From: a virus
Taxonomy: Duplodnaviria; Heunggongvirae; Uroviricota; Caudoviricetes
Strand: one strand, 5' to 3'
DNA length: 15,035 nucleotides
IMG/VR virus record: IMGVR_UViG_2565956611_000003
Span: 1 to 15,035 of that record
Shown piece after piece: positions 4,110 to 11,264 of this stretch; position 1 is the stretch's first letter; each line of letters opens with the position of its first letter. Below the pieces are notes generated by a model that was not told the DNA's origin, did no database searches, and was given only the letters and a program-made list of their open reading frames with translations. Both the position numbers and the translations under genes were made by a program.

Positions 4110-5316
4110 CTTTTCTCCCTTTAATTTCCACAGTCTGTTTCCATGCCTGGCTGAACTCATCACCACCTTCACGCGGCGGCATACCCTCACGCTCACGGGC
4201 TTCGTTCGGATTCATGATCCCGTTCTTAATCCCTTTCTCATACGTGGCATAACGTTCGGTGGGTGTGGCGCGTAATAAATCGGCTGAATCAAACTCAACC
4301 AGATAACGGGTACCAGGTACGGGAGAAGCCACCAGCAAAGCGGCCTTGATTTGCTGTTCGAAGTTCGCCAGCCACGGGCGCATTGTCATGGTCAGAAACG
4401 CGCGGCTTGCCTCGCTGAAATTGCTGTAGGTGCTGTTGCTGTATTCCTGCAGAAAAATAGGCGATACGTTGAACATGCGGGCGATGTCTTCAATGGAGAA
4501 GCGACGGGAGGCCAGCCATTCCGCATCCTGGTTACTCATTCCCAGTTGCCTGTAATCCATGCCCCCTTCAAGGATTGGCGTTTTTCCGGCATTTTTCGCC
4601 CCCTTGTAGCGTTCCAGAGCATCCAATGCCTGTTTACCTTTCACGCCGTCCAGCCATTCGCCTGACGTGATAATCCCTGCCGCCATCATGCCATCTTTCA
4701 TAATGCTGGCTCCGTGACGCTGTTGAGCAAGGCCAAGCCCCAGCGCCTCACGGCAAATCGTGACGGGGGAACGCCCCAGAAAGCCATCATCCGAGGCATA
4801 GCGGAGATGCAAAACTTCTTCCTGTAAATACGTGCGCACCGTTCCTGTACAGGGTTCGGTGATGGTATAGCGGTATTTGTGTGCGCCTGTGCGTTCCGGT
4901 ACAACACACCCCGGCGCATAAGGATGAAGTGATTTTGGCTGCCCGTCCTGCCCCCACTCAATAACCGCATAGGCGTTACCGTTCAGCAGGCAGTGACGCA
5001 TCATTGTGCGTTTAAACTGGTAAGGTGTCTGGCACGAATTAGGCTGCTCATTCAGCAGAATATCTACTGGGTGACTGTCCAGCCATTCCCGCGCCTCCCT
5101 GCCCTTGTCATTACGTACCAGATACAGATAACACGGCATCGTGGCCACCGCCTCAGCGATGACAGAAACCGCATTCATCACTGCAGGCAATGATTCAGCC
5201 GTCCCGGCAGAAACATATTCTCCGGATCCGGTATTCGGTACGCCGGACAGCGCCAGAAAATCATCAATGGACAGGTTACGCTGCTCGCTTTTTTTACGAC
5301 TAAAAGGCCACCACAT
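4102..5316 (-). CDS. Portal protein, HK97 family
   Basis: 405 aa from ATG 5316 (MWWPFSRKKSEQRNLSIDDFLAL...), 1 nt after the protease stop. Size and position between protease and connector fit a portal. The ORF-track TTG start at 5406 would overlap the protease gene by about 90 nt. Confidence 0.85.
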   Translation of the reverse strand: MWWPFSRKKSEQRNLSIDDFLALSGVPNTGSGEYVSAGTAESLPAVMNAVSVIAEAVATMPCYLYLVRNDKGREAREWLDSHPVDILLNEQPNSCQTPYQFKRTMMRHCLLNGNAYAVIEWGQDGQPKSLHPYAPGCVVPERTGAHKYRYTITEPCTGTVRTYLQEEVLHLRYASDDGFLGRSPVTICREALGLGLAQQRHGASIMKDGMMAAGIITSGEWLDGVKGKQALDALERYKGAKNAGKTPILEGGMDYRQLGMSNQDAEWLASRRFSIEDIARMFNVSPIFLQEYSNSTYSNFSEASRAFLTMTMRPWLANFEQQIKAALLVASPVPGTRYLVEFDSADLLRATPTERYATYEKGIKNGIMNPNEAREREGMPPREGGDEFSQAWKQTVEIKGRKDE

Positions 5317-7932: not shown

Positions 7933-8227
7933 ACCGTTTCACGGGATCTCGCATTCTGCGCCTTATTTTCCACAGATATTCGATCATCGCTTCCACCTGC
8001 TCACGGTTGGTTGCGAAAATTTCCCCGGTCAGTGAGCTACGCAGAAAATCATGATGATCCACAACAAACAACGCATCGGAAGAAAGCAGACGGCGATATT
8101 TTTTTGCTGTCATGGTTTCCAGATCATCAAAATCATGAAACTTTTTATGTTGCTGGACTTCTTCAAATGTCACTGGAATGTCCCCTCTGTTGTCGCTAAA
8201 ACGGTATGTTGTCCCCGTACGGATCAT
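7931..8227 (-). CDS. Hypothetical protein (98 aa)
   Basis: Protein-like composition; last gene of the minus operon running from the iteron region; overlaps the SSB 3' end. The start is ambiguous (ATG 8227 or ATG 8113) and no strong SD is seen. Confidence 0.45.
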   Translation of the reverse strand: MIRTGTTYRFSDNRGDIPVTFEEVQQHKKFHDFDDLETMTAKKYRRLLSSDALFVVDHHDFLRSSLTGEIFATNREQVEAMIEYLWKIRRRMRDPVKR

Positions 8228-8621
8228 CGTGCTGACCCGTCTGCTGTTTTGCCCTGTTCAGTGCGTCAGTGGCCTGCCCCTGCTGGCCTTTTTTGCCGCC
8301 CGGTCGCGCTGTTCGCGCACTGATCACGCTGTCTGCGATAACCTGCCAGCCCTGCCGCGTTTCGCCGTTCTGGCCTGTCCACTGGCTTACCTGCATGTTA
8401 CCCGCCACGCTCACCAGTTCGCCTTTGTGGTGTTTTGCCAGTGCGTCGGCCTGTCTGCCAAACGCCAGGACGGATAACCACATCATCGCCGTTCCGTCAT
8501 CTGCCTGGCTGCACGGAAGGGGGACCGCCATACTAGCCATCGTCATTTGTGTACCCTTGCTGGTGGTCTTTAACTGCGGGTCAGCCACCAGCCGCCCGTA
8601 AGCCGCTATCTGTGCTGTCAT
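8196..8621 (-). CDS. ssb: Single-stranded DNA-binding protein (SSB-like, OB-fold) with acidic C-terminal tip
   Basis: 141 aa. The C-terminus ends ...DDPYGDNIPF, resembling the conserved SSB tail (DDDIPF). The N-terminal region aligns by eye to the SSB OB-fold (IAAYGRLVADPQL...; WLSVLAFGRQADALAKHHKGELVSVAGNMQVSQWTGQNGETRQGWQV). ATGA overlap with the upstream ORF. Confidence 0.7.
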   Translation of the reverse strand: MTAQIAAYGRLVADPQLKTTSKGTQMTMASMAVPLPCSQADDGTAMMWLSVLAFGRQADALAKHHKGELVSVAGNMQVSQWTGQNGETRQGWQVIADSVISARTARPGGKKGQQGQATDALNRAKQQTGQHDDPYGDNIPF

Positions 8622-8863
8622 GCTGTCTGCTCTCCGGTTTTAACGTTGATGGTTGTCACCTGTTCCGCTTCGGCAATCTCCCGTTCTGTCAGCGTGGCAA
8701 AGTTTGCAGCTGCCGTTGTCATGAATGCGCTAATCAGTTCGGGATGTGCTTTCGCATATCCTTCCCCGGCGTTGCGGTCGATGATTTTTATCGACACCCT
8801 TAACCAGTGTTCCGTCAAATCAAGGGCGTGCGATTGTGATTTTTTTGTGTGCTTCGCTGTCAT
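8618..8863 (-). CDS. Hypothetical protein (81 aa), first gene of the operon leaving the iteron region
   Basis: ATG at 8863; translationally coupled to ssb (ATGA). No family recognised. Confidence 0.45.
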   Translation of the reverse strand: MTAKHTKKSQSHALDLTEHWLRVSIKIIDRNAGEGYAKAHPELISAFMTTAAANFATLTEREIAEAEQVTTINVKTGEQTA

Positions 8864-8908
8864 AGGCTTTATCTCACAGCAGTAAATTAAAATTTTTGCG
8901 TTTTAACC

Positions 8909-9136
8909 CTTCACCTGTTCACCTTTTGATATTTTCCATTTAAATTCATACTGTTAAGGGGTGAACAGTTTCACAAAAACTATTCACCAACTGTTCACCA
9001 CTGTTCACCCTTGAAGCTCAATAAACAACCAAAAAGGTGAACAGTGAATAGTTTGGTGAACAGTTCATAAATAACTGTTCACCCTATAATATACTGATAT
9101 AAAAGATAATTATGACAGGCTGAACAGTGGTGAACA
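8909..9136. repeat. Iteron array / candidate origin of replication (P4-type TGTTCACC octamers plus AT-rich segment)
   Basis: Eight perfect octamers: TGTTCACC at 8916, 8992, 9002, 9076 and the reverse complement GGTGAACA at 8960, 9036, 9055, 9129. Degenerate copies near 8909, 8981, 9044, 9119. AT-rich stretch with TATAAT at 9085-9118. Lies directly 3' of the primase/helicase gene. Confidence 0.8.
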
Positions 9137-9150
9137 GTTATTCAATAAGT

Positions 9151-10968
9151 TTAATTTTTGCTATCGTCATTAGTGACCGATACACATGATGGCATCCAGT
9201 CTTCTGATTCCTCCGTCAGTGTCACGTTTGAACGAAAACCGTGCTTCGTTTTCCGTTTCATATACTCCCTGCCATATTCCGCCATTGCCCCCGGCATATC
9301 TTTACCGAAGCGCGTCAGTGTTACAGGTTTACCAAACCCATGTGCCCTCATATAAGCCAGATAGGCATGATAGAGATACCTGCGTGGGCTGAATGGCACA
9401 ATTTCAGCATTACCCACTAACAGGCCATCACACATTACCGACGCCATGAGATAGCCGCAGAAGTCCACCAGCGAATCCCCCTCTCGCTTTATCGCCAGTG
9501 CTTCTTCAGATTTCTGCTGCTCATATAACAGGCGTCTGGCTTCGTCCTGGTCAGCAAACCGTGTAAGCAGATGGCGAATCACTACCGCCAGCTCACCTTC
9601 TATTTTTTCCGCCAGCATTGGATCGCGTTCGTTCTCCGGTACAACTTCCGAAAAATTGAATATCACCCGACGACGTGAGATCCCCCCGCTGCGGTCACTG
9701 AATGACATGGCGTTATTGTTAACCGCCAGCACTACTGCCGGAATACGCGTTGAGTAGGGGGCTTTGTGTTTCGGGTCAATTGCCACCTTGTCACCGCCTG
9801 TAATAGCCTTAATCCCTGCCCCATCACCAGCGTAGCGGGTCATATCCGGCATGATAATCAGCGAAAAGCCAACCACTAACGCGCGTTCCCTTGCATCTTC
9901 CAGCGCCTTCATGCTTGCCGATACTGTGTTGGCCTTACCCGCCAGCATGGTGCAAATCTCCGCCATCACGCTTTTACCACTTCCCCCTGGACCTGTTACC
10001 TCAATGAATAACTGCCAGTCGTACCGGTTCGCCAGCACCATGAATAATGCAGCCAGTACGCGATCCGCCTTGCGGTCATTCTCAGCCACCGAACGGCGTA
10101 ACCACTTCCAGAAATTCGGCGCATGTGTTGCCAGCGTTTCCCCCTCTGCTGGTGGGCTGAAAGGTAATTCACTGGCAATTAACAACCAGTCGTTTTTGTT
10201 ATGCTCCCGAAAATTACCTGTTCTGGTATCAAATACCCCGTTACTGAATCCAATCAGGTTACGGGCTGTATTCCCCATTACAGGCAAACTTAACTTCATG
10301 GTATCGACCGCCGATTTAATGGCGTTCTGCGAATAGCTGATCTCCGCATCAATGAAAATCTGTGCCATAGCTCGCTGTAATTCTTTATCCTGTACTGGCT
10401 CCCATACAACGCCGTTGTAATGGTGAACAGTGTCAGAGTCAGCATGAATCGCCAGTTCACCGCCATAATGTGCCAGGAGAACTTCGCCGCGTTGACTTGC
10501 TCCCATCTGGTTAAGCGCCAGTGATGAAGCGTTATCGTCTTTTACCCGCTCTTTTTTCTTTACAGGCAGTTCAACTACCTTTTTCTTTTCCGCCTGCTCT
10601 GCCCGTTCACGTTCCAGATATTCGCGCCAGTTCTCCCGTTTCTGGCTGTGCATTCCTTCAGGGTAATAATCAGCATCCCTGACACCTGCCACTGCCAGTT
10701 TCTGCCCGATGGTATTAACAAGCCCCGGACGCAATAACCCCGCCTGATAGAGACGCACGCGATAGCGTCCGTCCGATACGATTTGCAGGTTGTCCAGTTC
10801 GGCAAGTTGTTGCTCTCCAAGCCAGACAGGTGGCACGTTATCGCCAGCCAGTCGCCCGTCCTGTTCCTGCCACTGTTTCGCATGTGCCCACGCATCACTA
10901 CCCGCAAAAATGATGACTTCCGTCATTTTGTCACGCGGCTGGTGTTTTAAATTTGGCGCTTTTTTCAT
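9151..10968 (-). CDS. Replication initiator, primase/helicase type (P4 alpha-like / D5-like SF3 helicase with Walker A)
   Basis: About 605 aa from ATG 10968 (SD GGAGAGAG upstream; ATGA overlap with the preceding ORF). Walker A motif TGPGGSGKS mid-protein; large multi-domain protein next to the iterons. The ORF-track start at 10983 is GTG. Confidence 0.8.
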   Translation of the reverse strand: MKKAPNLKHQPRDKMTEVIIFAGSDAWAHAKQWQEQDGRLAGDNVPPVWLGEQQLAELDNLQIVSDGRYRVRLYQAGLLRPGLVNTIGQKLAVAGVRDADYYPEGMHSQKRENWREYLERERAEQAEKKKVVELPVKKKERVKDDNASSLALNQMGASQRGEVLLAHYGGELAIHADSDTVHHYNGVVWEPVQDKELQRAMAQIFIDAEISYSQNAIKSAVDTMKLSLPVMGNTARNLIGFSNGVFDTRTGNFREHNKNDWLLIASELPFSPPAEGETLATHAPNFWKWLRRSVAENDRKADRVLAALFMVLANRYDWQLFIEVTGPGGSGKSVMAEICTMLAGKANTVSASMKALEDARERALVVGFSLIIMPDMTRYAGDGAGIKAITGGDKVAIDPKHKAPYSTRIPAVVLAVNNNAMSFSDRSGGISRRRVIFNFSEVVPENERDPMLAEKIEGELAVVIRHLLTRFADQDEARRLLYEQQKSEEALAIKREGDSLVDFCGYLMASVMCDGLLVGNAEIVPFSPRRYLYHAYLAYMRAHGFGKPVTLTRFGKDMPGAMAEYGREYMKRKTKHGFRSNVTLTEESEDWMPSCVSVTNDDSKN

Positions 10969-11264
10969 TTCTGCTCTCTCCACGCGGCAATCATGTTTTT
11001 TAGTTCCTGTAGTTTTTTATCAACATCCATACATGACACATGGTTATTTCTGGAAAGCGGGATTTCCCGACTGAATCTGCTAATAAAGATCTCCACGTTC
11101 AGCGAACTAAGAAATGAATAGCCATCACGGATAAAATACACACGGTCAAACATCAGTTCTTTTACCGTTACTCTGTTACCGTTCTTATCCAGATAAATAG
11201 CGCCGGGGATAATTTGGGGGTGTGCATAACCGCTGGCAGTCAAGCCAGATAAATACGTTCTCAT
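10965..11264 (-). CDS. Hypothetical protein (99 aa)
   Basis: ATG at 11264; stop overlaps the primase start (ATGA). Moderately AT-rich. No family recognised. Confidence 0.5.
   Translation of the reverse strand: MRTYLSGLTASGYAHPQIIPGAIYLDKNGNRVTVKELMFDRVYFIRDGYSFLSSLNVEIFISRFSREIPLSRNNHVSCMDVDKKLQELKNMIAAWREQK

Follow-up and report, generated by a model that had tools for sequence, protein, structure and literature searches.

An iteron array 3′ of the initiator gene is the probable replication origin of a capsid-forming PICI-type phage satellite

Gene organization of the satellite island

The window (the whole 15,035-bp stretch of DNA analysed here) is a capsid-forming PICI-type (cf-PICI) satellite island. 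Its genes are arranged in the order integrase, DUF6387, HTH regulator, Icd-like, DUF4222, a ‘DNA primase family protein’ (the initiator) and an array of short repeats, past which lie an 81-aa gene, ssb, two small genes, and the genes for the major capsid, prohead protease, portal, head-tail connector, HNH, TerS and TerL proteins. This gene order is the architecture described for cf-PICIs (bioRxiv 10.1101/2022.09.08.507074), and the island has the gene content of a PICI and of a cf-PICI, with int, an AlpA-type regulator, pri-rep and its own capsid, portal, protease, HNH, TerS and TerL genes. Tail and lysis genes are absent, as judged from Pfam and from the RefSeq annotation that E. coli SMS-3-5 has for its identical island, and no sid, delta, psu or epsilon/ash genes are annotated in the island, which has its own HK97-type capsid module instead; the element is not P4-like in gene content.

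The 801-bp segment at 8600-9400 is 100% identical to the chromosomal island of SMS-3-5 and to many other strains, and with this segment as a query at least 80% of its length is matched in 531 of 5,426 complete E. coli genomes. The SMS-3-5 island is located between thiM and rcnR (RefSeq annotation), and is entered as ‘PICI? HNH; terL’ in Table S2 of Fillol-Salom et al. 2018 (PMC6092414). One relative, at 74.5% identity, has been deposited as a phage (‘Escherichia phage vB_KppS-Ant’, LR881103.1, 16.5 kb; our locus L001) with the source given as ‘induced prophage’. It has cf-PICI gene content together with some extra genes, its initiator C-terminal region and iteron counts agree with those of a Klebsiella locus (L010), and the record seems to represent a packaged satellite and not a phage.

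The genes and coding segments next to the array are as follows.

8196-8621, minus strand: ssb (Pfam SSB, E=1.8e-15, and annotation)
8618-8863, minus strand (the initiator strand): 81-aa gene, directly downstream of the proposed origin
9151-10968, minus strand: initiator gene (‘Pri-Rep’; RefSeq ‘DNA primase family protein’), 605 aa from the ATG at 10968
9190-9480, minus strand: coding region for the origin-binding domain (homology to PDB 1KA8)
9226-9258, minus strand: codes for KRKTKHGFRSN, the segment that covaries with the iteron word

The 81-aa protein has no match in Pfam or NCBIfam, and its gene is positioned as is an 85-aa gene in EcCICFT073 (see below). The terminase genes are ~6 kb away from the array.

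Iterons in the initiator-ssb interval

The octamer TGTTCACC is present in nine copies in the window, where 0.52 are expected from 200 dinucleotide-preserving shuffles; the shuffle maximum is four, and none of the 200 reached nine. Eight of the perfect copies are within a 221-bp segment (8916-9136) and are in both orientations. The initial annotation had counted eight perfect and about four degenerate copies, and we find eight perfect, two with one mismatch and two with two mismatches. All four degenerate copies are in register, and relatives have iterons at those sites.

8916+, 8960-, 8992+, 9002+, 9036-, 9055-, 9076+, 9129-: perfect TGTTCACC
8981+: degenerate iteron, one mismatch (TATTCACC)
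9119-: degenerate iteron, one mismatch (TGTTCAGC)
8908+: degenerate iteron, two mismatches (CCTTCACC)
9043-: degenerate iteron, two mismatches (TATTCACT)

The first iteron is 14 bp past the initiator stop codon (9151-9153), and the far end of the array is 45 bp from the ATG (8863) of the 81-aa gene. With its flanking elements the full feature is ~8884-9150, a little wider than the 8909-9136 interval of the initial annotation.

The array is composed of two inverted copies of a ~100-bp unit, with a centre near 9022 (inverted-repeat pairs I1 and I2). Along the plus strand, a rightward pair (8908, 8916) is followed by a 36-bp AT spacer, a leftward iteron (8960), 13 bp, three rightward iterons (8981, 8992, 9002) and 26 bp leading to the second module, which has three leftward iterons (9036, 9043, 9055), 13 bp, a rightward iteron (9076), a 35-bp AT spacer and a leftward pair (9119, 9129).

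8884-8899: A/T tract AAATTAAAATTTTTGC beside the outermost iteron pair
8908-9009: distal ‘crr-like’ module, an inverted copy of the ori-like unit that aligns with P4 crr units
8924-8959: 36-bp spacer of the crr-like module, 78% A+T
9010-9035: 26-bp linker and dyad centre between the modules (layout and inverted-repeat pairs I1, I2)
9036-9136: initiator-proximal ‘ori-like’ module, colinear with P4 ori
9084-9118: 35-bp spacer of the ori-like module, 80% A+T, with the length and place of the P4 ori spacer

The spacer at 9084-9118 corresponds to the AT-rich stretch noted initially at 9085-9118, and is the strongest candidate for the place where the strands first separate; the second spacer (8924-8959) was not part of that annotation. 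The A-run/T-run (AAAA..TTTT) is next to the outermost iteron pair in every relative, whichever iteron word is used, and bending or a priming site are possible roles. A candidate IHF site in the distal spacer was dropped because it is seen in this sequence only and relatives are without it. No RNA family is found in the window (Rfam).

There is no second iteron cluster anywhere in the island when the window is scanned for perfect and near copies of TGTTCACC. The ninth perfect copy (10422-10429, minus) and a one-mismatch copy (10454-10461, plus) are both inside the initiator gene. We considered the 10422 copy, together with that at 10454, as an analogue of the second origin of P4, and rejected it because close relatives do not have TGTTCACC at these positions and because one stray copy is near the chance expectation; these intragenic copies are probably there by chance.

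The initiator protein

The initiator consists of an N-terminal TOPRIM-like domain, D5_N, an SF3 helicase (DUF5906) and a C-terminal origin-binding domain, and has Pfam matches to D5_N, DUF5906 (SF3 helicase) and Pox_D5. The mechanical open reading frame extends to a GTG at 10983 (610 aa), and residues 502-598 of this longer frame match the origin-binding domain of P4 alpha (PDB 1KA8; phmmer, E=3e-24, 98/100 residues). Overall the initiator shares 50.7% identity with P4 alpha over aa 150-600, 48% with EcCICFT073 Pri-Rep and 86% with EcCIRM13514 Pri-Rep.

The N-terminus is of a different kind. Residues 1-165 have no sequence match in Pfam, NCBIfam or PDB, the EGYATA motif is missing, and there is no BLAST similarity to P4 alpha residues 1-300; the P4-type primase domain is replaced by an unrelated 150-aa TOPRIM-like domain that does not have the catalytic acidic residues. 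The ‘primase’ label is shaky because of both the missing EGYATA domain and the lack of catalytic acidic residues in its replacement. Among the loci compared, three unrelated N-terminal modules are fused to a common core of D5_N, SF3 helicase and binding domain.

Window type: the window, EcCICFT073 (64% identity in the N-terminus), EcCIRM13514, L004, L008, L010, L011, L061
P4 EGxATx primase type: P4, L012, L017, L018, L043-45, L044, L052
Third type: Serratia L013-16

Comparison with the P4 origin

The C-terminal domain of P4 alpha is reported to bind type I iterons. The initial annotation had identified TGTTCACC with this P4 iteron, and the GenBank record of P4 (NC_001609) bears this out, labelling the word and near copies of it ‘ori type 1 repeat’. 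The record has six type 1 repeats at ori (9310-9413) and five in each of two 120-bp crr units (‘cis required region for replication’, 4291-4590). The crr units are directly 3′ of the alpha gene, past a terminator, and ori is ~4.5 kb away.

The comparison of iteron number and spacing that had been proposed shows that the two modules of the array have separate counterparts in P4. The proximal module is colinear with ori (9310-9413) at 79% column identity, shares its 43-bp and 10-bp start-to-start spacings, and has its 35-bp AT spacer at the exact place of the 35-bp AT spacer of P4 ori. The distal module aligns with both of the 120-bp crr units. Once the iterons are removed, 25-26 of the 36 positions in the distal spacer are identical to the crr spacers (z = 4.2-4.4 relative to shuffled sequences), and the resemblance of the proximal spacer alone to that of P4 ori is modest (21 of 35 positions, z ~2.6-2.8). 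Each crr unit opens with an A-run/T-run (4291-4305, 4471-4485) like the tract beside the outer iteron pair of the island (8884-8899), and both modules are oriented to the initiator gene as are their P4 counterparts.

The island thus has the same 8-bp iteron as P4, a homologous origin-binding domain and a homologous D5_N and SF3 helicase core, and there are departures of several types. The island has one fused cluster with the modules 26 bp apart, whereas ori and crr of P4 are separated by ~4.5 kb; P4 has two crr units and the island one crr-like module; and the three type II repeats at P4 ori are not matched by a type II array in the island, where a search for CAYTTAAAGY with up to one mismatch gives two scattered matches, with four expected by chance. 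A terminator is annotated in P4 between alpha and crr, and none is predicted between the island initiator gene and the array; P4 alpha has the EGYATA primase domain that the island initiator does not. We note a single CATTTAAATT in the distal spacer (8937-8946, plus), which resembles the type II repeat with one mismatch and is within the chance expectation.

The description of the array as a P4-type origin therefore holds for the iteron word and the binding domain, but not for the separate ori and crr, the type II repeats, the primase domain or the P4 gene content. Similarly, the array is directly 3′ of the initiator gene, as had been proposed, but in P4 that place is occupied by crr and not by ori. 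Downstream of the initiator genes of P4 and its closest relatives (L035, L036) there are only a terminator and crr-type units. The compact two-module origin is found with all three N-terminal types, including EGxATx (L012, L044, L052), and the split arrangement of P4 thus looks like the exception among the loci examined.

Relationship to PICI origins

In the SaPI rep-ori of Staphylococcus aureus, two iteron sets reportedly flank an AT-rich region. The array resembles SaPI origins in being 3′ of an initiator-helicase gene and in having two iteron sets around AT-rich DNA, although the iteron sequences are unrelated. Fillol-Salom et al. (PMC6092414) stress the same origin logic, and verified experimentally a Pri-Rep-dependent origin in the PICI EcCICFT073. 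[quoted passage not shown] The main text of that report refers to the relationship of Pri-Rep to alpha only as ‘distant homology’ and does not mention the shared iteron word; the iteron sequences are listed in its Fig. 2a.

The island and EcCICFT073 have DUF4222, the initiator, the origin region, a small ORF and ssb in the same order. In EcCICFT073 there is a 288-bp intergenic region, then the 85-aa gene, then ssb, and the intergenic layout matches that of the island element for element with the words TGTCTACC, TATCTACC and TCTCTACC. The two differ in that the island uses TGTTCACC where EcCICFT073 has TGTCTACC/TATCTACC, with a corresponding difference in the binding-domain segment, and in that the island is a capsid-forming PICI with its own capsid, portal and terminase genes. 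The initiator gene of EcCIRM13514, whose Pri-Rep is one of the four alleles compared in PMC6092414, is followed by a TGTTCACC array as in the window.

The array thus has the position and structure of a PICI origin, being immediately 3′ of pri-rep with its iteron sets flanking AT-rich DNA (12 iterons, two spacers). It belongs to the already described class of PICI origins, with an iteron and a binding domain of P4 type. We assign it to this class because the architecture, the position and the host element fit, and because several defining features of the P4 replicon are missing.

The whole initiator-plus-origin cassette is exchanged between PICIs. In E. coli 042 (EcCI042; L077, 5325-5524) there is a RepA-family helicase with ~6 copies of an AAGTGAG-type repeat, and the repeats separate the initiator gene from a small ORF and ssb, as they do in the window. 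We set EcCI042 aside as a detailed comparison, its initiator and its word both being different.

Covariation of the iteron word and the binding domain

Scanning one genome per species yielded 72 loci. Layout was examined in 17 loci, of which 15 have the arrangement [>>]-AT-[<]-[>>>]...[<<<]-[>]-AT-[<<]; the exceptions are L007, which is rearranged, and L043, in which the next gene follows the proximal module and the distal one is missing. Six iteron words occur across the loci.

TGTTCACC: Escherichia, Raoultella, Kluyvera, Pluralibacter, Citrobacter, Klebsiella, Serratia marcescens, Rahnella
TGTCTACC: L007 (rearranged), L011, L012, EcCICFT073
TGTCCGCC: L014, L015
TGTCCACC: L016
TCTCTACC: L052
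TGTGCACC, mixed with TGTTCACC: Proteus L043 (proximal module only) and L045 (from raw sequence)

Alignment of the C-terminal domains shows that the word tracks one short segment past a conserved ‘EY’. The remainder of the domain is close to the window sequence in L007, L011, L012 and L014-16.

TGTTCACC, window clade: KRKTKHG-[IFL]RSN
TGTTCACC, P4: KRHTKQG-IQTN
TGTCTACC, L007, L011, L012: R(A/K)(K/Q)CT(K/R)GPDKGR(V/T)I(T/S)N, with a 5-residue insertion (GPDKG)
TGTCCGCC: KAESKKKATRGRIQSN
TGTCCACC: KERATRGPSKGNYQSN
TGTGCACC: KFKTKRG-YYYN
EcCICFT073: TRKVKGV-TQTN

A set of 80 viral-contig loci gives a similar picture, with TGTTCACC as the top word in all 79 analysable relatives that have KRKTK[HL]G. 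These relatives have 56 distinct downstream sequences, of which 36 are identical in iteron orientation and have spacers of 35 and 36 bp, and the proximal spacer is 35 bp in most of the 56. Comparison of nine TGTTCACC-type origins, drawn from eight genera, shows no variation in the iteron cores; the spacers differ in sequence but remain A+T-rich and of constant length. Such a pattern would follow if the iterons are recognised by the C-terminal domain and if selection acts on the length of the spacers and on how readily they melt.

From these alignments, a single short and swappable segment of the winged-helix domain seems to determine iteron specificity in this family of initiators. We take the segment that covaries to be the wing of this domain; a full-length AlphaFold model of the initiator (pLDDT 41) is too poor to place it. 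In L007 (Escherichia ruysiae), which has the rearranged TGTCTACC iterons, the initiator frame from the first in-frame Met is only 470 aa, and this may be a decaying or recombinant copy.

Transcription across the array

The initial annotation held that the region must also contain the promoter for the 81-aa gene and ssb, and this is not borne out: a consensus scan of 8500-9500 finds neither a sigma-70-like promoter nor an intrinsic terminator on either strand. A perfect TATAAT at 9085-9090 (plus) was rejected, since no -35 element that could serve it is present and P4 does not share it. Read-through from the initiator gene into the 81-aa and ssb genes is the simplest interpretation, because PICIs of Gram-negative bacteria are described as being transcribed in one direction and as needing the activator AlpA for induction (PMC6092414). 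If so, transcription crosses the array, and it probably runs through the origin. A weak promoter overlapping the outer iterons is possible, and a coupling of replication to ssb expression, which had also been suggested, is speculation.

Function of the array

We conclude that 8884-9150 is very probably the vegetative replication origin of this capsid-forming PICI-type satellite. Upon induction by a helper phage, the initiator would be made, with its D5_N, SF3 helicase and C-terminal winged-helix domain of the P4 alpha origin-binding type. The C-terminal domain would bind directly to the ~12 TGTTCACC iterons, which in each ~100-bp inverted module form a tandem pair and opposed iterons around a 35/36-bp, ~80% A+T spacer. 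Cooperative binding would then load a hexameric helicase on one of the spacers, presumably that of the ori-like module, and the spacer would open for theta-type replication, with SSB from the gene just downstream coating the unwound DNA. In P4 terms, the proximal module would be the equivalent of ori, and the distal module that of a single crr unit, with the two joined in one compact cis-acting site.

Plasmid iteron-binding initiators often autoregulate, and with the array being intergenic and upstream of the 81-aa and ssb genes, the repeats could instead be mainly an operator or promoter through which the initiator or another regulator controls these genes. The lack of predicted promoters and terminators in 8500-9500 argues against this, as does the presence of an equal array before unrelated downstream genes in relatives, and the homologous EcCICFT073 region is needed for replication (PMC6092414); we regard it as quite unlikely as the main function, and an operator function could be a secondary role. 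Another reading is that the cluster is only a crr-like cis enhancer, with the true origin elsewhere in the island. The cluster is at the position of P4 crr and its distal half resembles a crr unit, but its proximal half is colinear with P4 ori itself, the only other candidate in the window is the unconserved copy at 10422, and in EcCICFT073 the initiator gene and the region downstream of it sufficed for plasmid replication (PMC6092414), which makes an origin elsewhere very improbable.

A further possibility is that the array is an origin that is fired or primed mainly by a host or helper protein (e.g. DnaG) or by the alpha protein of a co-resident P4-type element, and it arises because the island protein is without primase chemistry: nothing in its first 165 aa is recognisable as a primase, the TOPRIM-like fold has no catalytic residues, and TGTTCACC is also recognised by P4 alpha. 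The helicase and binding domains are intact, however, and EcCICFT073, with the same N-terminal type, shows the ~100-fold lower transfer upon deletion of pri-rep and needs pri for AlpA-driven replication (PMC6092414), so that we consider this unlikely. That the array is a chance or low-complexity repeat, or a packaging (cos/pac) site, has nothing in its favour beyond the AT-richness of the region; the count was not reached in any of the 200 shuffles, the layout is conserved across genera with compensating changes of the word, the terminase genes are well removed from it, and the likelihood of this explanation is negligible. An origin recognised by the island’s own initiator is thus the reading we prefer.

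Implications for satellite replication

The array region would define the minimal cis-acting replicon of a widespread satellite, refining a known class of origins without overturning current understanding. In the PICI and cf-PICI papers searched, we did not find the organization into two inverted modules, one ori-like and one crr-like, nor the covariation of the word with the binding segment, nor the lack of a recognisable primase active site.

These observations can be combined in a broader reading, which we put forward tentatively and as rather doubtful when taken as a whole: P4-like satellites and cf-PICIs would share initiator-iteron specificity and engage in cross-talk, the split origin of P4 would be derived, and the segment past ‘EY’ would act as a switch. 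The two E. coli satellite families are unrelated, P4-like satellites depending on P2 and cf-PICIs on helper phage tails. If the reading is correct, P4 alpha and the cf-PICI initiator could each fire or titrate the origin of the other element, with cross-activation or interference between co-resident satellites as a consequence. The segment would then be a specificity switch through which lineages escape such cross-talk, and the separate ori and crr would represent the break-up of an ancestral compact two-module origin. The puzzling need of P4 for a distant crr may be a relic of that arrangement.
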